The notes beneath the pieces were generated by a model. The model was not told the DNA's origin, did not search any database, and saw only the letters and a program-made list of their open reading frames with translations. Positions 4,787 to 55,635 of a stretch of DNA of 64,000 nt are shown piece by piece; the first letter of the stretch is position 1; each line of letters begins with the position of its first letter. The stretch covers positions 7,119-71,118 of the forward strand of contig CADAFS010000003.1 in assembly GCA_902787305.1 (NCBI GenBank), written 5' to 3'. The translations under genes and the position numbers were made by a program. The stretch comes from an uncultured Pseudomonadota bacterium. GTDB lineage: Bacteria; Pseudomonadota; Alphaproteobacteria; Rs-D84.

Positions 4787-5950
4787 TTATCCGCGCCATT
4801 TATCTTCGCGCACAATGGCAAGTACCATTCCAAACAGCAGGCAAAATCCGACCAACGAACTGCCCCCGTACGATATAAATGGCAAAGTCATACCCTTTGG
4901 CGCAAACAGTCCCAATGTCGATACCAAATTTATACAACACTGAATCCCAAACAGCGCCGCCGTGCCACCAACCGCATAGAACACGAACCTATCGCGCGCG
5001 TTCATTGCATCCGTCACCAACAATTTCAATACATATATCAAAAGGCATAACATAATAACCGCCAATATCGCGCCCAAATCTTCGACAATCGCGGCATAGA
5101 TAAAATCAGTATGCGCATCGGGCAGGCCTTCTTTGACGAACGCGTTGTCGCCACTGCCAAAAAAACCACCGTGACGAATTGATTGAACAGACCGACTAAC
5201 CTGATAATTATTGCCGCTTCCGGTAAGCAAAGTGTTTATACGATCACGCACATGGGTCATCGTGTAATATGCTATTGTTAAAACTCCACCGCCCGCGGCA
5301 ACCATCCCACCAAACGCCACCCATGGCAAACCCGCAATCAAAAGCATACATATCAACACCCCAAGATAAAGCATTGTGCTACCGACATCGGGGTGTCGAA
5401 AAATAACAACCAATGCCGGAATAAAAAGTGCGATATATACCCACCAATTTGGCATCTGCCATTTCCATGCATCGCGTGCAACAAAAAGTTTTTCGCCAAA
5501 TCGCCGATGCATTTCCGCCAAGAACCAAGCAGTCAACATAATAAATCCGGGTTTCATAATATCTGCGGGCAAAACATTAAACGGGCCAATTGCAACAAAT
5601 CTTGCTGACCCATTGATTTCTTGGGGTGCAACAATTGTTATGGCAAGTAAAATAAAACCAATGACGACATCAAAAATTGATAGCTTTAATATATTTTTTT
5701 TGCTTAACAAACTTGCACCGAACAAAGCGACCAACCCCATTCCATAAAACGGCAATCCCTTTACCAGAAACTTATACCACGGCCATCCTTTTTGATACGC
5801 AACAACACTGCCGGCGGAAACGGAAAAGAACATTCCAATCAGCATCAACAGCAAAACCATATACAGCAATCGTCTGTCGATTTCGAAAAACCAACTGGTA
5901 AGTTTGCTTTCTTCCGTCCGTTTAAACATACGCAATTTTCCTTTATGCAA
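4787..5950 (-). CDS. ftsW: SEDS-family peptidoglycan polymerase FtsW
   Basis: Polytopic membrane ORF with FtsW/RodA-type C-terminal motifs (GMTLPFISYGGSS), located between mraY and murG. Start could be the internal Met at 5929. Confidence 0.88.
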   Translation of the reverse strand: MHKGKLRMFKRTEESKLTSWFFEIDRRLLYMVLLLMLIGMFFSVSAGSVVAYQKGWPWYKFLVKGLPFYGMGLVALFGASLLSKKNILKLSIFDVVIGFILLAITIVAPQEINGSARFVAIGPFNVLPADIMKPGFIMLTAWFLAEMHRRFGEKLFVARDAWKWQMPNWWVYIALFIPALVVIFRHPDVGSTMLYLGVLICMLLIAGLPWVAFGGMVAAGGGVLTIAYYTMTHVRDRINTLLTGSGNNYQVSRSVQSIRHGGFFGSGDNAFVKEGLPDAHTDFIYAAIVEDLGAILAVIMLCLLIYVLKLLVTDAMNARDRFVFYAVGGTAALFGIQCCINLVSTLGLFAPKGMTLPFISYGGSSLVGFCLLFGMVLAIVREDKWRG

Positions 5951-10184: not shown

Positions 10185-10635
10185 TAGCGTTATTCCTACA
10201 AAAATTCCCGTCATACCGCCGTATCAGGCCCCGCGCAAAACTTTGATTTGCGTGGGTGATTTCAGGCGGTATTTTGTCGTCACCGTTGAACCCACCAGAT
10301 ACCGCGCTTCCACGATATAGTGTTGATTGCGATTGTAATCGCCATGCCGGCGTATACCGACACGGACAGCAAAACCGTCACATCAAAATCGATATCAACA
10401 ACACTTTCGGATACCAGTATCGATAACAATTTGCCAACGGTCGGTACAGTAAATATGAACACTGTTGTGACGTATACCGGCACGCCTGTGACGGTTTATT
10501 ATCCACTGGCGACACCTGTGGAAGAAGATTGGCCGGACACGACATATAACACAAGTGTTTATATCCCACAAAATCAATCGTCACAGAATAATTGATGGCG
10601 TGACGGGAAAAACACCGGTGCGAAAGCGCCTGTTC

Positions 10636-10718
10636 CACTTACACCAAGCCAGGGCAAAGCCCTGGCGCAGTCTCGGCACCGCACCCAGCGGTGACGGATA
10701 ATCACTTACACTAACACT
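10636..10718 (+). repeat. Double-hairpin REP-like element, copy A, with flanking CACTAAC/CACTTAC units
   Basis: CACCAAGCCAGGGCAAAGCCCTGGCGCAGTCTCGG + CACCGC-N-GCGGTG hairpin + GACGGATAA. Confidence 0.8.
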
Positions 10719-13524: not shown

Positions 13525-14193
13525 ATGGTAAAAACAAATACCCAGGCCGGGGCATCGGCAACGAAAAAATATGTTAAATTCGGTATCGTGGCGGTTGTTG
13601 TAATCGCGGTTGCGGTTATTGGATTGTTCGCGGTAAAATCTTTTTCAGGTAAAACGGTTAGTGCGGAATCCGCAATTGATGGCATATCGAGTGAGGCCGT
13701 ATCCGGTGGTGACCTGCGTATGGCGGTGATTCGTATGGATGCAATTCAATCGGATGCCAAGGCGTTGCAAGACCTGCGTAAACAACGCGAATCGTATGAA
13801 GAAAAATTGCGTAGTGAACTTGAAAAAGAACAAAAAGAATTAGAAAAAGAAAAAGAAGAAATTGAAAAATCCCAAGACGTCCTTTCCCAGGAAGCATTAC
13901 AACGTCGCGTTGTTGAATACCAAGGCAAGGTCACAAAATTGCAACGTGATTTGACAGAACGCGCACAATCGGTTGATGCCGCGTTCCAAAAGGCGTTGGT
14001 TGAAATCCAAGAAAAACACCTTGACCCGATTATCGAAGCGATAATTGCGAAAAAGAATTTGTCTTTGGTAATTGATGGTCGTTTTGCGCGGACGGGTGCA
14101 AATGTTGAAAACCTTGATATCACGGCGGATGTTATCAATGCATTGGATAAAAAGGTTTCAACCGTTAAAATGGACACACCGAAAGGATTCTAG
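13525..14193 (+). CDS. skp: OmpH/Skp-like periplasmic chaperone
   Basis: N-terminal anchor plus long Lys/Glu-rich coiled region typical of OmpH, located upstream of lpxD-fabZ. The stop TAG is the first unit of a GTWAGT array. Confidence 0.75.
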   Translation: MVKTNTQAGASATKKYVKFGIVAVVVIAVAVIGLFAVKSFSGKTVSAESAIDGISSEAVSGGDLRMAVIRMDAIQSDAKALQDLRKQRESYEEKLRSELEKEQKELEKEKEEIEKSQDVLSQEALQRRVVEYQGKVTKLQRDLTERAQSVDAAFQKALVEIQEKHLDPIIEAIIAKKNLSLVIDGRFARTGANVENLDITADVINALDKKVSTVKMDTPKGF

Positions 14194-14221
14194 TGGTTAG
14201 TGCAAGTAGTTAGTGTTAGTG
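14191..14221 (+). repeat. GTWAGT array starting at the skp stop codon
   Basis: TAGTGGTTAGTGCAAGTAGTTAGTGTTAGTG. Confidence 0.8.
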
Positions 14222-14255: not shown

Positions 14256-14284
14256 TTGCAAGTTAGTTTTTGTTTTACTATAAT
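14256..14284 (+). promoter_or_regulatory. Sigma70-type promoter of cassette copy 1 (TTGCAA-17 nt-TATAAT)
   Basis: Hexamers read directly. Same promoter in copy 3 and a near-identical one in copy 2. Confidence 0.7.
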
Positions 14285-14290
14285 CACACT

Positions 14291-14469
14291 TGCGATGGCG
14301 GGTTGCCGTTGCTGGGTCCTAGAAAACCCACCGAAGTAAAAAAAACTCCACCAGGTTGGAGGGTTGCGAATATATTGAATAAGCAACACTGTTTACTTCG
14401 CAGTTTTCTAGCCTCCAACCGTTTGTATTTTTGCAAATGGTTTTTTTATTTCATCAAAAAGGAAAAACA
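14291..14469 (+). promoter_or_regulatory. Structured 5' leader RNA of cassette copy 1 (candidate cis-regulatory RNA)
   Basis: Three stems with compensatory changes relative to copy 3. Ends in the terminator at 14417..14447 before the SD. Confidence 0.6.
14417..14447 (+). terminator. Intrinsic terminator inside the cassette leader (copy 1)
   Basis: AACCGTTTG...CAAATGGTT stem followed by T7, 22 nt before the ORF start. Confidence 0.7.
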
Positions 14470-14697
14470 ATGTTTGAAACAGTTATTACGGATAACCCAT
14501 TACCACAAACGGTGATAAAGGCGCTTTATCGTTATTATGAACAGCCACAAAATTCTATGACGGTTGGTGAAATGTATTTGTTGTTAAAACTGGTTCTATC
14601 GAAAATGGAAGATGAATTTGAAAAAATGGGATTCGATATAGAAAAAGAATTAGCCGATATACAAATACCCACCACCCCCACTAACACTAATCACTAA
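14470..14697 (+). CDS. Small conserved protein, cassette copy 1 (75 aa), unknown function
   Basis: Three paralogs in the window. 12 synonymous vs 3 non-synonymous differences against copy 3 over 61 codons (hand count). SD AAGGA upstream. The C-terminal TNTNH is encoded by the flanking array. Confidence 0.7.
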   Translation: MFETVITDNPLPQTVIKALYRYYEQPQNSMTVGEMYLLLKLVLSKMEDEFEKMGFDIEKELADIQIPTTPTNTNH

Positions 14698-14715
14698 CAC
14701 TTACACTAACCACTT
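14678..14715 (-). repeat. GTWAGT array (complement orientation) closing cassette copy 1
   Basis: CCACTAACACTAATCACTAACACTTACACTAACCACTT. Confidence 0.8.
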
Positions 14716-14763
14716 ATATCTAATTTCCCTTTTCTTTTTTAATTTTTTTATTATAATGCGGGC

Positions 14764-15807
14764 ATGTTGAAAAAAATTAAATCTTTGATTGGGCCACGCG
14801 CGACCAAGATAACGGCCGGCGAATTGGCAAAAATGTTTGATTTGGAACTGCGCGGGAATCCCGGTGTCGTCATATCGGGCGTTGCACCAATTGCGGATGC
14901 GCGCGCGGGTCAGATTGCGTTTTATTCGACCGAACAAAACAGCAACGCTTTCAAAATTTTACCCATATCCGTGTTGGAAAATACGCGCGCAAGTGTGATT
15001 TTATTACAACCGGAAATGGCATCACACGCGCCACATGGCGCGACACTTTTGGTATGCGCTCATCCGCGCGGCGAAATCGTAAAGATTTTGGGGGTGGTGT
15101 ATCGCGAACCGCCGCGGCGCGGTGTGTCGTCTGATGCGGTTATTGAACGCGGCGTGTTTTTTCGCAATCGGCGCAGTGTTTATGTCGGACAATTTGCGAC
15201 AATTGAACGCGGCACGGTGATTGAATCGGATGTGAAAATTTATCCAAATGTTTATATCGGGCGCAATGTGACAATCGGGCGTGGCACGGTTATCCATTCG
15301 GGTGCGCATATTGAAAACGCGACAATCGGTGCGGATTGCGTAATCCATAACGGCGCATCAATTGGCAAGGACGGGTTCGGATATACCCGCCAAGACGGTC
15401 ACAATGTCTTTATCCCGCATGTTGGTCGCGTGGTTATCGGCGACCGCGTCTCAATCGGTGCGAATTCTTGTGTCGACCGTGGCGCCCTTACTGATACAAT
15501 GATCGGTGACGGAACAAAAATAGATAATCTTTGCCAAATTGCACATGGCGTTGTAATTGGGCGTGAATGCTTTTTGGCGGGCGGCGTTGGAATCGCCGGC
15601 GGTGTGAAAGTTGGCGACCGTGTGTTGCTTGCGGGGCATGTCGGTATCGCAAACGGGGTCAAGATTGGCAATGATGCCGAAGTTGGCGCGAACAGTGGCG
15701 TTTTCCGCGATATTCCCGACGGCGGGCGTCATATGGGTTATCCGGCGATGCCGGGAACGGAATTCTTGCGCCACTATGCGTGGGTAAAAAAACATTTGAA
15801 CGATTAA
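14764..15807 (+). CDS. lpxD: UDP-3-O-acylglucosamine N-acyltransferase
   Basis: 347 aa, hexapeptide-repeat left-handed beta-helix region, N-terminal LpxD domain, upstream of fabZ. Confidence 0.92.
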
Positions 15808-33820: not shown

Positions 33821-34348
33821 ATGCCAGTTGCAAAAAAGAAAACATCAGCAAAGAAAACAACAACAGCGAGAAAATCCGTGAAACGTGCGCCGGCGCGGCG
33901 TGCGGTCGTGCGTGAAGTTCCGGTTCAAACACCGCGGCGTCGCATGGTCGGGCCGCTTTCGGCGATTGCAAGTTTTTGGCGTCGATATTTTGATTTTGTT
34001 GGGCGTTCAACGCGTGCGGAATTTTGGTTTGGATATTTGTTTGCGTACATTGTGAATTTCTGTTTTGCGTATTTTATCGGCGGAACGGTGTCGTTGGTGG
34101 TTAGTGCGATTTTATTCATCCCGGTGCTGGCGCTTTCGGTTCGCCGCTTCCGTGATGCGGGAATTTCGGTGTGGCTTTATCTTGTGCCGGTGTTGTTGGT
34201 TTATTTGATACCGGTGATTCGCGGTTCGGCATGGTATACGATGATATCTTTTGGTTATGTGTCGTCGGGTATGGCATTGTACGCGTTGTTCTTTATCATC
34301 GATACGATATTCAATCTCGTGGTTGCATGTTTGCCAAGTAAGAAATAA
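33821..34348 (+). CDS. DUF805-family inner membrane protein with basic N-terminal extension
   Basis: GRSTRAEFWFGYLF...LALSVRRFRDAG motif typical of DUF805 (YhaH-like). Confidence 0.75.
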   Translation: MPVAKKKTSAKKTTTARKSVKRAPARRAVVREVPVQTPRRRMVGPLSAIASFWRRYFDFVGRSTRAEFWFGYLFAYIVNFCFAYFIGGTVSLVVSAILFIPVLALSVRRFRDAGISVWLYLVPVLLVYLIPVIRGSAWYTMISFGYVSSGMALYALFFIIDTIFNLVVACLPSKK

Positions 34349-34437
34349 GTGTTATCCGTCTTTGTCCATCACCGCAAAGCGGTGCCGTGACTACATCGAA
34401 ACTGCGCCAGGGCTTTGCCCTGGCTTGGTGTTAGTGC
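34349..34437 (-). repeat. Double-hairpin REP-like element, copy B
   Basis: Reverse orientation of the consensus: TTATCCGTC...CACCGCAAAGCGGTG...GCGCCAGGGCTTTGCCCTGGCTTGGTG. Confidence 0.8.
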
Positions 34438-34473
34438 AGGTGTGTCCAATCGCGGTGCGGTGTGCCGCGATAG

Positions 34474-35516: not shown

Positions 35517-35537
35517 TCACTAACCACTAATCACTAT
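35517..35537 (-). repeat. Short GTWAGT array (complement orientation) containing the metG stop
   Basis: TCACTAACCACTAATCACTAT. Confidence 0.6.
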
Positions 35538-37329: not shown

Positions 37330-37406
37330 TGGTGGGTGGTATTGGACTCGAACCAACGACCTTTACGATGTCAACGTAACGCTCTAACCAACTGAGCTAA
37401 CCACCC
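37330..37406 (-). tRNA. tRNA-Val (anticodon GAC), CCA encoded
   Basis: Hand-folded cloverleaf: acceptor GGGTGGT/ACCACCC, D arm GCTC-AGTTGGTTA-GAGC, anticodon arm TTACG-TTGACAT-CGTAA, T arm GTTGG-TTCGAGT-CCAAT, A73-CCA. Confidence 0.9.
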
Positions 37407-37449: not shown

Positions 37450-37677
37450 TTAGTGTTCGGTTTCGTTTTGCGGAAAACCGTCAACCGTTCCCATCAATTC
37501 GCGTTCGATATCGATTCCCATCTTCTCCAATTCGTCTTCCATTTTCGACAGAATCAATTTCAACAACAAATACATTTCGCCGATTGTCATAGGATTTTGC
37601 GGCTGTTCATAGTAACGATACAGTGTTTTTATAACCGTTTGCGGTATTGGATTATTTGTGATTACCCGGCTAAACAT
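37450..37677 (-). CDS. Small conserved protein, cassette copy 2 (75 aa)
   Basis: MFSRVITNNPIPQTVIKTLYRYYEQPQNPMTIGEMYLLLKLILSKMEDELEKMGIDIEREL, paralog of 14470..14697 and 58089..58298. Confidence 0.65.
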   Translation of the reverse strand: MFSRVITNNPIPQTVIKTLYRYYEQPQNPMTIGEMYLLLKLILSKMEDELEKMGIDIERELMGTVDGFPQNETEH

Positions 37678-37730
37678 TATTTTCACCTTTGTTAAAAAAC
37701 ATTTGCGAACTCCAACCGGTTCCATTGCAA
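37678..37730 (-). promoter_or_regulatory. Truncated leader of cassette copy 2
   Basis: Retains GCAATGG, GGTTGGAGTTCGC and CAAATGTTTTTT segments; the central ~130 nt are absent. Confidence 0.4.
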
Positions 37731-37735
37731 ACATC

Positions 37736-37764
37736 ATTATACTAAAACGCCCAAAATATTACAA
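37736..37764 (-). promoter_or_regulatory. Promoter of cassette copy 2 (TTGTAA-17-TATAAT)
   Basis: Hexamers read on the complement. The upstream TTTTTCATTG context is shared with the other copies. Confidence 0.6.
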
Positions 37765-37877: not shown

Positions 37878-39488
<1,611 letters not shown>

Positions 39489-41598: not shown

Positions 41599-41660
41599 TC
41601 CGTCTCCGCTTCGCTACGCCGAGACTGCGCCAGGGCTTTGCCCTGGCTTGGTGTAAGTGT
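41596..41660 (-). repeat. Double-hairpin REP-like element, copy D (short)
   Basis: GATCCGTCTCCGCTTCGCTACGCCGAGACTGCGCCAGGGCTTTGCCCTGGCTTGGTGTAAGTG. Begins at the accC stop codon. Confidence 0.75.
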
Positions 41661-41703
41661 GTCGCCGGCGGTTTTTCTAAATAACGAATCGTCTCAAAAA
41701 AAC

Positions 41704-43365: not shown

Positions 43366-43440
43366 GGTACTAGCCACTAACACCAAGCCGGGGCAAAGCC
43401 CTGGCGCAGTCTCGCCGTAGCCGCAGGCGAAGGCGGATTA
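43366..43440 (+). repeat. Double-hairpin REP-like element, copy E
   Basis: CACCAAGCCGGGGCAAAGCCCTGGCGCAGTCTCGCCGTAGCCGCAGGCGAAGGCGGATTA. The last 3 nt are the sspB stop (complement). Confidence 0.75.
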
Positions 43441-43902
43441 TTTCTTTCTCTTCCTAAACTCGTCCAATGACACAACGCGGCCGTCGTCGGGTATTGTGTC
43501 GCCTGTGCCGTCTAATGGTAATTCAATATCGTTATCCGGCGCGTTGCGTTCGGGGCCTTTGTGGAAAGATAACATAAAATCAACCGATGGATCTTTGAAT
43601 TCAACCAATGCCGAAAACGGAACGCGAATAAAGAACGGCCGCCCATCAAATGTCAGTTGCACGCCAAATTCTTTGTCCGATACATGCAAATTATTATACG
43701 AATACTGCAACACAATCGTCATAATGTCTGGATACCGTATACGCAGGAAATCCGGCAACACAACCCCCGCATCATGCGTGCGAAATGTTATAAAAAAATG
43801 CATCCCGTCCCCAAGGCCGTTTATCTGTGCATGAATCAATGCTTCGCGCACAACGGATTTTAACGCGTTATCTAACAATGATTGATAATCAATTCGTGCC
43901 AT
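43438..43902 (-). CDS. sspB: SspB-like ClpXP adaptor (alphaproteobacterial type)
   Basis: Eye alignment with Caulobacter SspB-alpha (HFFITF..., MTIVLQ..., DPSVDFMLSF). Confidence 0.75.
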   Translation of the reverse strand: MARIDYQSLLDNALKSVVREALIHAQINGLGDGMHFFITFRTHDAGVVLPDFLRIRYPDIMTIVLQYSYNNLHVSDKEFGVQLTFDGRPFFIRVPFSALVEFKDPSVDFMLSFHKGPERNAPDNDIELPLDGTGDTIPDDGRVVSLDEFRKRKK

Positions 43903-55580: not shown

Positions 55581-55610
55581 GCACTAACACTAATCACTTG
55601 CACTAACCAC
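55581..55610 (-). repeat. GTWAGT array (complement orientation) between two terminator hairpins
   Basis: CACTAACACTAATCACTTGCACTAACCACT. Confidence 0.8.
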
Positions 55611-55635
55611 TAAAAAACGCCCAAACGGGCGTTTT
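55611..55635. terminator. Bidirectional terminator between the PNPOx-like gene and pal
   Basis: AAAAAACGCCC-AAAC-GGGCGTTTTT. Confidence 0.8.

Follow-up and report, generated by a model that had tools for sequence, protein, structure and literature searches.

A candidate terminator/antiterminator leader RNA with two covarying, competing folds in gut Alphaproteobacteria of the order Rs-D84

The stretch of DNA analysed here (the window: 64,000 nt of contig CADAFS010000003.1, from an uncultured alphaproteobacterium of the lineage Rs-D84) contains two copies of a structured, promoter-proximal leader RNA of ~155-160 nt, one at 14291-14469 on the + strand (copy 1) and one at 58299-58490 on the - strand (copy 3). 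Pattern scans and a covariance model found more than 200 copies of this RNA in total, in metagenome-assembled genomes (MAGs) and metagenome contigs. We think it probable that the RNA is a new, clade-specific cis-acting transcription attenuator or riboswitch-like leader of reduced-genome gut Alphaproteobacteria around Candidatus Enterousia (Rs-D84). Mechanistically it belongs to a known kind, the terminator/antiterminator leaders, among which it forms a new family. The evidence that carries this reading is the covariation of two competing sets of helices, termed fold T (terminator-permissive) and fold A (antiterminator), together with a terminator hairpin whose stem begins inside one of the competing segments.

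Copy 1 and its open reading frame (ORF) lie between skp/ompH (13525-14193) and lpxD (14764-15807). The elements of copy 1 are as follows; transcription would start at about 14291.

14256-14261 and 14279-14284, + strand: sigma-70-type promoter as read from the sequence, -35 TTGCAA and -10 TATAAT with a 17-nt spacer
14292-14312, + strand: P1, 5'-terminal hairpin, GCGAUGGC-GGGUU-GCCGUUGC; the loop fits the GNGUU pentaloop of the family
14313-14330, + strand: hairpin A (UGGG/CCCA), antiterminator fold; its loop is the P2 5' strand, and C14327 is common to hairpin A and P2
14319-14327, + strand: P2 5' strand, CUAGAAAAC, pairs with 14403-14411
14332-14340, + strand: P3 5' strand, CGAAGUAAA, pairs with 14392-14400
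14346-14361, + strand: S1:S2 hairpin, formed by S1 (CUCCA, 14346-14350) and S2 (GGUUGGAG, 14354-14361); would act as anti-antiterminator
14364-14386, + strand: P4, stem UUGC/GCAA, apical loop GAAUAUAUUGAAUAA (14368-14382), present in both folds
14388-14404, + strand: P5, alternative hairpin (ACUG/CAGU) of the antiterminator fold; its loop and 3' arm hold the P3 3' strand (14392-14400)
14403-14411, + strand: P2 3' strand, GUUUUCUAG
14412-14420, + strand: S3, C followed by CUCCAACC; pairs with S2 plus G14362 (9 bp) to give the antiterminator, and forms the base of the terminator stem with its last 2-4 nt
14417-14447, + strand: intrinsic terminator, AACCGUUUGUA-UUUU-UGCAAAUGGUU, U-run at 14441-14447
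14460-14463, + strand: Shine-Dalgarno sequence AGGA
14470-14697, + strand: 75-aa ORF, from the ATG at 14470 to the end of the stop codon

The corresponding elements of copy 3 are:

58518-58523 and 58495-58500, - strand: -35 and -10 boxes of the promoter
58466-58490, - strand: P1
58345-58469, - strand: core of the leader
58412-58419, - strand: S2
58391-58405, - strand: P4 loop
58347-58354, - strand: S3
58321-58350, - strand: terminator and U-run
58089-58298, - strand: ORF

The two leaders had been picked out as matching structured copies in an earlier, sequence-only reading of the window, and all five sequence features listed there are present, several of them with small corrections. Copy 3 begins at 58490 rather than 58489, its ends being otherwise as given. 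P1 is placed correctly at 14292-14312 and its stem is indeed extended in copy 3, but the G.U to A-U change in it is one-sided. P2, formed by 14319-14327 and 14403-14411, differs from that of copy 3 by one compensatory change of A-U to C-G. In P4 three of the four stem pairs are swapped around the same 15-nt loop, as claimed, at coordinates one nucleotide further on (14364-14386, not 14363-14385). The same shift applies to GGTTGGAG, at 14354-14361, not 14353-14360; its alternative partners are CTCCA on the 5' side and CTCCAACC (14413-14420) on the 3' side. Between the start of CTCCAACC and the ATG (56 versus 57 nt) a single T in the T-run is all that distinguishes the two copies, and the first 183 coding nucleotides carry 16 substitutions where 15 had been counted. 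In both copies the terminator is followed by the ribosome-binding site, with the start codon ~56 nt after S3. Folding z-scores against shuffled sequences were -4.2 for copy 1 and -5.3 for copy 3. Copy 3 is orthologous to a leader in a related genome (locus L003; 86.5% nucleotide identity), from which it differs by compensatory changes in P2 and P3.

Further copies were retrieved in two ways. One genome per species was searched with the pattern GGTTGGAG-N(4-9)-GAATATATNGAATAA, which matched at least 120 stretches; metagenome loci were retrieved with a different anchor, CTCCAAC..GGTTGGAG..CTCCAACC. The second, loop-independent retrieval gave 135 distinct matches, of which ~120 were judged by eye to be family members. 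Among the others were false positives of the S1/S2/S3 pattern: L178 (1290-1650) and L234 contain unrelated tandem arrays of ~30-nt units with CTCCAACCC...GGGTTGGAG. A covariance model, R1 (129 positions, 29 pairs), was trained on 44 copies from other genomes. It scored the window copies at 79.8 bits (copy 1) and 63.3 bits (copy 3); run with filters off, it found no further match in the window, and on the opposite strand at both loci it reached 8-11 bits only. With R1 we built two alignments, A3 (113 copies from genome loci) and A5 (94 copies from metagenome loci); the two sets may overlap in organisms. Alignments made with the model lean towards fold T. The helices of fold A were counted on these fold T-fitted alignments, so that their counts carry no bias towards fold A.

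Fold T consists of P2, P3, an optional hairpin P3b, the S1:S2 hairpin and P4. Its pairs were formed in 95.3% of the alignment cells in A3 and 96.7% in A5, compared with 69.1% and 72.1% after shuffling and 36-47% and 35-46% when the partners were slid along the alignment. Double changes occurred at 25 of the 29 pairs in each alignment, and the covariation score was 0.647 in A3 (shuffled 0.172) and 0.622 in A5 (shuffled 0.151). The shuffling control ignores phylogeny, a weakness that neither the slid-partner control nor the comparison of copy 3 with its ortholog shares. In P2 98-99% of cells were paired and double changes were seen in 7 of 7 pairs, double changes together with all four Watson-Crick types occurred at every pair of P3, and all four types were seen at P2 as well. 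The P4 stem covaries, and the changes in S1 were mostly wobble-compatible. The loop of P1 reads GGUGUUC, AGAGUUU, CGGGUUG and similar across the family. RNAalifold recovered fold T unaided. G.U pairs outnumbered A.C pairs by 145 to 20 and by 74 to 9 in two counts, which indicates that the structure is read on the transcribed strand. The compensatory changes first noticed between the two window copies are in this way borne out by 113 + 94 copies of a structured RNA.

Fold A consists of hairpin A, whose loop is the P2 5' strand, of P5, which holds the P3 3' strand, and of the 9-bp helix S2:S3. In this fold 91.1% of cells were paired in A3 and 94.2% in A5, against 83.5% and 88.1% after shuffling and 33-64% and 29-64% with slid partners. 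The covariation score, 0.226 in A3 (shuffled 0.110) and 0.181 in A5 (shuffled 0.078), was about twice that of the shuffles. The inner pairs of hairpin A were 96-98% paired with GC/AU/GU variation, one hairpin A pair was GC in 69 copies, GU in 24 and AU in 11, and one pair of the P5 arm was UA 63 / AU 25 in A3 and AU 60 / UA 27 in A5. The two sets of helices compete for the same nucleotides: C15 has G272 as its partner in P2 and G6 in hairpin A, and the base of P5 joins G272 to C237. This exchange of hairpin A and P5 for P2 and P3 is a second layer of alternative pairing that goes beyond the sequence-only reading.

The pairing of S2 with either S1 or S3 was supported by copies found with the model only, in which the three segments change together. 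This was seen in L042, L024 and L143, and partly in L021:

L042: S1 CTCCTGACC, S2 GGTCAGGAGG, S3 CCTCCTGACC
L024: S1 CTTCTGCC, S2 GGCAGGAGG, S3 CCTCCTGCC
L143: S1 CTCCTGAT, S2 GGTCAGGAG, S3 CCTCCTGACC
L021: S1 degenerate, S2 GGATTGGAG, S3 CTCCAATCC

The ninth pair of S2:S3 also covaries, being GC 82 / UA 17 / UG 6 in A3 and GC 78 / UA 11 / UG 3 in A5. For the base 5' of S1, pairing with the same S2-flanking base was seen in no more than 63 of 113 copies, a figure that we regard as no better than chance. The overlap of CTCCAACC (14413-14420) with the terminator (14417-14447) had been described as terminator/antiterminator geometry, and both the triple covariation of S1, S2 and S3 and the ninth S2:S3 pair lend weight to that description.

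A hairpin followed by a run of at least four U was present after S3 in 118 of 124 copies (median 7 bp, -8.2 kcal/mol), and in 104 of these 118 its stem starts at position 4-6 of S3. Because the terminator stem starts inside S3, formation of S2:S3 removes the basal CC/ACC:GGU pairs beside the U-run. Six copies lack the U-run; two of them (L023 and L135) retain the hairpin beside the ribosome-binding site, which suggests, by analogy with riboswitch families that use both transcriptional and translational platforms, that copies of this kind may be translational variants. Two hallmarks of an intrinsic-terminator attenuator were found: a hairpin with a U-run directly 5' of an ORF, and a covarying antiterminator helix that shares nucleotides with the terminator. 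A covarying structured domain of the kind expected of a riboswitch aptamer was found too, as a multi-helix junction with a conserved P4 apex.

The 15-nt P4 loop, described earlier as invariant, characterizes only a subfamily, since it occurred in 27 of the 135 distinct matches of the loop-independent retrieval. The constant part of the apex is 5'-GAAUA and RAAUAA-3'; between them stand either 2-5 nt of variable sequence or an extra hairpin, at most ~25 nt long. Such an apparently paired apex hairpin between GAAUAAU and AAAAUAAG was observed at the metagenome loci L146, L148, L152, L155, L160, L176, L193, L217 and others, and sets its carriers apart as a subfamily; its presence in many members means that the 'loop' is better described as two conserved strands. 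The conserved apex is present in both folds and abuts S2, and we infer that it is the best candidate for a contact site of an effector. No pairing partner of the P4 loop was found in the window, where reverse complements did not exceed chance (10 matches versus 5.2 expected, the perfect ones being the loops themselves). A kissing interaction between the P1 and P4 loops was likewise unsupported, the longest complementary run being 4.21 nt versus 4.01 nt in shuffles.

In the switch that we propose, transcription would start from the leader's own predicted promoter with P1 at the 5' end of the RNA. In fold T the long-range helices P2 and P3 would close a junction bearing the S1:S2 hairpin and P4, and would leave S3 (CUCCAACC) free, so that the adjacent terminator hairpin could form. 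In fold A the 5' half would withdraw into the local hairpin A, P5 would replace P3, and S2 would pair with S3 over 9 bp and capture basal nucleotides of the short terminator stem. Fold T would end transcription before the gene (OFF) and fold A would let RNA polymerase read into it (ON); the exchange between hairpin A/P5 and P2/P3 would reinforce either state. A factor (small molecule, protein or RNA) would shift the balance between the folds. In nearest-neighbour calculations fold T with the terminator lay below the fold with enforced S2:S3 by a median of 13.3 kcal/mol at full length and of 10.6 kcal/mol when the RNA was truncated at S3. An energy gap of 10-13 kcal/mol in favour of fold T makes OFF the probable default, and the factor is probably required for read-through.

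Several points weigh against this reading. The case for regulated read-through is a geometric one. By calculation fold A is less stable than fold T by 10-13 kcal/mol, and in the model the local S1:S2 hairpin forms before S3 is made, so that antitermination would not be spontaneous. The overlap between S2:S3 and the terminator amounts to only 2-4 nt. The folds may not be strictly alternative: hairpin A and P2 could possibly coexist as an H-type pseudoknot, for which a first loop of 1-2 nt over a 7-bp helix is sterically reasonable, and S2:S3 might possibly stack on P2 with S1 displaced, so that S2:S3, P2 and P3 coexist. Such pseudoknots would make the two-state picture a simplification. The patterns used for retrieval required S2 and the loop for the first set, and S1, S2 and S3 for the second, so that the conservation of these segments is partly there by construction. 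A classical metabolite riboswitch is made less likely by the downstream genes, which do not form a metabolic pathway. Finally, a recurrent sub-threshold likeness to the free-standing small RNA (sRNA) sRNA-Xcc1 keeps a trans-acting role open.

The position of the leader relative to promoter and gene is conserved in the family. A TATAAT-like -10 box was found 21-29 nt 5' of the model core in 89 of 110 copies (61 perfect and 46 with 5 of 6 matches, n = 110), ~85-110 nt upstream of S2; its fixed distance indicates that the RNA begins at P1. On the 3' side more than 90% of the copies are followed by a same-strand ORF, in most cases with the start codon 52-62 nt after S3, and no same-strand gene stands 3' of L021, L026, L040 and L110. 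In two of these orphan copies, L021 and L110, which come from different genomes, the leader terminator is followed at ~60-110 nt by a closely similar motif, CCGTCTTCTCATCTCCAATCAAAGAAACGG; the flanking GGGGCT/AGCCCC of L110 would lengthen it there into a long hairpin. The motif could be another conserved element or a bidirectional terminator.

Among 115 downstream proteins, 34 are small helix-turn-helix (HTH)-like proteins of two families, one of which matches HTH_31/XRE; ~50 are signal-peptide, Cys-rich or lipoprotein-like proteins, five are of the 75-aa type found in the window, and the others are miscellaneous. A single metabolic or transport pathway was not seen among these 115 proteins. 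Small HTH proteins and secreted proteins do not make up the coherent metabolic set typical of metabolite riboswitches, and we therefore regard 'attenuator' as a safer label than 'riboswitch'. The leader had been described as belonging to the gene of a repeated cassette; this did not hold for the family, nearly all other copies of which precede unrelated genes. By tblastn the 75-aa gene was placed behind window-type copies only, and we rejected the idea that the leader is specific to it. The 75-aa family itself is narrow (51 clusters from gut MAGs, none below 67% identity), and the loci of its most distant members retain the leader, with compensatory changes. The protein had no Pfam and no PHROGs match, and its AlphaFold2 model, three helices predicted at low confidence (predicted local distance difference test score, pLDDT, 64.6), had no structural neighbour. 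Operon partners of the small downstream genes were also considered and rejected: the next same-strand ORFs look spurious on inspection, and the small genes therefore appear to stand alone.

The record titles inspected name uncultured Candidatus Enterousia, Alphaproteobacteria, 'Rickettsiales' and unclassified proteobacterial MAGs; the hosts in them include ruminants, chicken and humans, and some isolate names look like those of termite-gut MAGs. Enterousia belongs to Rs-D84, an order of bacteria with reduced genomes that are mostly smaller than 1 Mb. Several copies per genome are found, at least five in one Enterousia MAG. Two or three leaders stand in tandem at L061 (2804-3103), L090 (2360-3000), L122 (390-860) and L201 (2327-2653), and L066 has a partial second module resembling S2-P4-S3 3' of the terminator (~1725-1800). 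Transfer RNA (tRNA) genes often adjoin the leaders (window 37333-37406; L085 3175-3364; L066 1424-1494; L051 2408-2478; L036 144-216), and such sites may be hot spots of insertion or duplication. A phage origin was rejected, as the motif was present on only four viral contigs and PHROGs matches were limited to a generic HTH family. An IMG/VR contig of 58.7 kb from a putative phage (L137) carries a divergent copy at 5450-5720, 5' of a 392-aa ORF, which retains hairpin A, P2, P3, P4 and P5 (ACCG/CGGU), has the S3 sequence CCUCCAGC and has no U-run.

A search of Rfam 15 that covered the window and 18 related loci found no family at its gathering threshold, so that the novelty claimed earlier stands, and the T-box model gave no match even at E values up to 10. 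In the literature we found no paper with the P4 loop sequence and none combining Rs-D84 with a riboswitch. The best likeness, which the sequence-only reading did not contain, was below threshold. Segments S2-P4-P5-S3, in the pairing of fold A, align with the full model of sRNA-Xcc1 (RF02221, positions 1-87), with which they share a G-rich outer helix of 9 bp, two hairpins, the first with an AAUA-rich apex and the second with 6 bp and a loop of 6 nt, then a linker of 6 nt and the closing strand. Four of ~12 copies tested had correct-strand matches at 29-40 bits: copy 1 of the window (29.4 bits), L039 (37 bits), L074 (40 bits) and L063 (35.8 bits), the gathering score being 53; copy 3 of the window did not match.

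The RNA sRNA-Xcc1 was first found in Xanthomonas campestris, and in Xanthomonas it was mapped as an RNA of ~88 nt, discrete on Northern blots, with its 5' end at the outer helix. A Xylella strain has seven copies, five of them within one genomic island. In integron cassettes the RNA precedes symE and has the orientation of that gene, and in APSE phages it precedes an ORF6N gene. Like our leader it is multi-copy in some genomes and stands 5' of small accessory genes. Unlike it, the leader has an extra 5' domain of ~85-110 nt (P1, hairpin A/P2, P3, P3b and S1) and a separate terminator; strands of the 5' domain compete with the Xcc1-like fold, and the domain covaries with the 3' module. The leader is moreover chromosomal, dispersed, outside integrons and in a different bacterial class. 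A free-standing ~88-nt transcript is not what the copies suggest, given a -10 box far upstream of S2 and a covarying 5' domain. A query with the sRNA-Xcc1 consensus gave no match in a plasmid collection. With scores below 53 bits and the extra 5' domain, the leader is not filed as a member of sRNA-Xcc1, which we regard as its closest known relative or analogue.

Terminator/antiterminator leaders include riboswitch expression platforms, the T-box, PyrR-controlled leaders and the trp attenuator. The new RNA resembles them in its four successive segments with 1:2, 2:3 and 3:4 pairing, the last being the terminator directly 5' of the ORF, and in the structured, covarying, sensor-like domain upstream. 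It differs from them in that S1 and S3 are near-identical copies of each other, in the additional exchange of P2 and P3 for hairpin A and P5, which would reinforce the switch, and in a gene set of small HTH and secreted proteins instead of one pathway. Riboswitches of the cyclic di-GMP-I (GEMM) class have many copies per genome, 5' of heterogeneous genes for surface and secreted proteins and for regulators. The likeness of our leader to them is one of gene context only, with no Rfam match and nothing pointing to a second-messenger ligand.

The main rival explanation is a free-standing gene for a trans-acting sRNA, a larger relative of sRNA-Xcc1, which we judge unlikely. The exposed C-rich S3 (CCUCC, resembling an anti-Shine-Dalgarno sequence) or the P4 apex would then pair with target messenger RNAs, and the downstream gene would be expressed by leakage only or share the cassette for other reasons. 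With its own promoter, an efficient-looking terminator and a terminator-permissive fold as the predicted ground state, the main product may indeed be an RNA of ~155 nt; CUCC is retained in S1 and S3 even where other positions change, the matches of sRNA-Xcc1, itself a discrete Northern species, recur on S2-P4-P5-S3, and four copies have no same-strand gene behind them. However, a same-strand ORF at a near-fixed 52-62 nt from S3 in more than 90% of copies is unexpected for an independent sRNA, and no second promoter is evident between terminator and ORF in either window copy. The joint change of S1, S2 and S3 means that internal pairing, not an external target, constrains them, and the covariation of hairpin A and P5 would have no role in a static sRNA. 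The same covariation of two competing helix sets that share nucleotides speaks against a constitutive structured 5' untranslated region that does not switch, a stabiliser, processing site or translation module that would have spread with a strong promoter and whose 'terminator' would be a stabilising hairpin. We hold this to be improbable, even though promoter, leader, terminator and ribosome-binding-site spacing are kept as one unit, the window copies are identical from S3 to the start codon except for one T, and the tandem and partial copies suggest spread by duplication: the U-run in 118 of 124 copies and a stem base inside S3 fit a terminator better than a stabiliser.

An element acting at the DNA level, such as a repetitive extragenic palindromic (REP) sequence, a miniature inverted-repeat transposable element (MITE), an integron attC-like site or a protein operator on the near-palindrome GAATATATTC, is largely refuted and very improbable. 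The genome is repeat-rich, with (TTAGTG)n arrays and a REP-like palindrome flanking the cassettes, S1 and S2 have a loose likeness to RYYYAAC and GTTRRRY, the core sites of attC, and many of the downstream genes encode HTH proteins. Against this stand the excess of G.U over A.C pairs in both counts, the reverse-strand scores of 8-11 bits versus 63-80 bits, and the dispersal of the copies, each with its own promoter, outside arrays. S1 and S2 stand in the attC order but with only 2-14 nt between them, and for S2...S3 the order is reversed; overall the copies depart from integron attC sites (57-141 bp spacing, cassette arrays) in order, spacing, dispersal and strand-specific pairing, a comparison that did not include a search for an integrase gene. 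An operator with fixed spacing is incompatible with a P4 apex that tolerates inserted hairpins, apparently paired in the copies inspected. Least credible of all is a trp-type attenuator in which translation of a leader peptide over S1 would free S2 for S3. The 1:2, 2:3 and 3:4 geometry is that of the trp attenuator, one frame is open across the whole copy 1 leader (14270-14515), and ATG, GTG or TTG often precedes the GGGG at the start of the core. When this was tested, it was unsupported: the start codon is not conserved (ATG 21, GTG 15 and TTG 13 of 113 copies), interruptions of the frame lie within 15-60 nt 5' of the P4 loop in 58 of 106 copies and, in 65, at the loop or up to 45 nt 3' of it, and stem lengths vary regardless of frame. 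An RNA like ToxI of type III toxin-antitoxin systems was considered as well and rejected, there being no tandem array inside the leader and the downstream genes being heterogeneous.

A third copy of the 75-aa gene in the window, copy 2 (ORF 37450-37677, - strand), has no full leader. The 64 positions 5' of it (37678-37741) hold a -10 TATAAT (37736-37741) and then ~55 nt with remains, in this order, of the 5' arm of P1, of S2 together with the 5' arm of P4, and of the 3' arm of the terminator. The covariance model does not detect this sequence, which looks like a deletion remnant of the full RNA; gene copy 2 has presumably lost the switch.

The cassettes of leader and ORF are accompanied by repeats. 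Short, degenerate, intergenic arrays of a TTAGTG/CACTAA hexamer or heptamer lie at 14191-14221, 14679-14717, 57990-58008, 58555-58588, 921-949, 35518-35536 and 55582-55613, and flank the cassettes in inverted orientation. Matches to TTAGTGNTTAGTG with up to two mismatches numbered 20 versus 2.7 expected. The motif is found in related genomes as well, for example in L127 between terminator and ribosome-binding site. At least six copies of a REP-like palindrome, CACTTACACCAAGCCAGGGCAAAGCCCTGGCGCAGTCTCGGC..., occur in both orientations (10630-10712, 34338-34441, 37878-37990, 41613-41664, 43369-43451 and 57996-58099), often adjoining TTAGTG arrays and cassettes; the palindrome is also present in L001. 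Downstream of the copy 1 cassette, the ATG of lpxD (14764) lies 6 nt after a perfect TATAAT (14752-14757), an arrangement that recurs at the orthologous locus L001; with so short a distance the lpxD messenger RNA is probably leaderless.

In sum, the original observation in the window is confirmed as real, and its interpretation as a structured leader with terminator/antiterminator geometry is supported. It is rare that covariation of both competing folds of a terminator switch is so clear from sequence alone. The bacteria concerned, a little understood and uncultured group with genomes of ~1 Mb, are common gut inhabitants of ruminants, birds, termites and humans, and the leader, standing before genes for secreted and surface proteins and small regulators, may be a principal control of their interface with hosts or partner cells. 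It is an orphan switch with well-defined, testable parts: S1, S2, S3, the P4 apex and the exchange of hairpin A/P5 for P2/P3. More tentatively, and with less confidence than in an attenuator as such, it may represent a new class of small-molecule or second-messenger riboswitch that would be the main regulon-wide control of secreted and surface proteins and small HTH regulators in Rs-D84, its 3' module being an ancient relative of sRNA-Xcc1. The leader offers a functional hypothesis for the mobile sRNA-Xcc1 family: if the ancient kinship with a new riboswitch class were true, the sRNA-Xcc1 RNAs would be cis-regulators instead of, or besides, trans-acting sRNAs.

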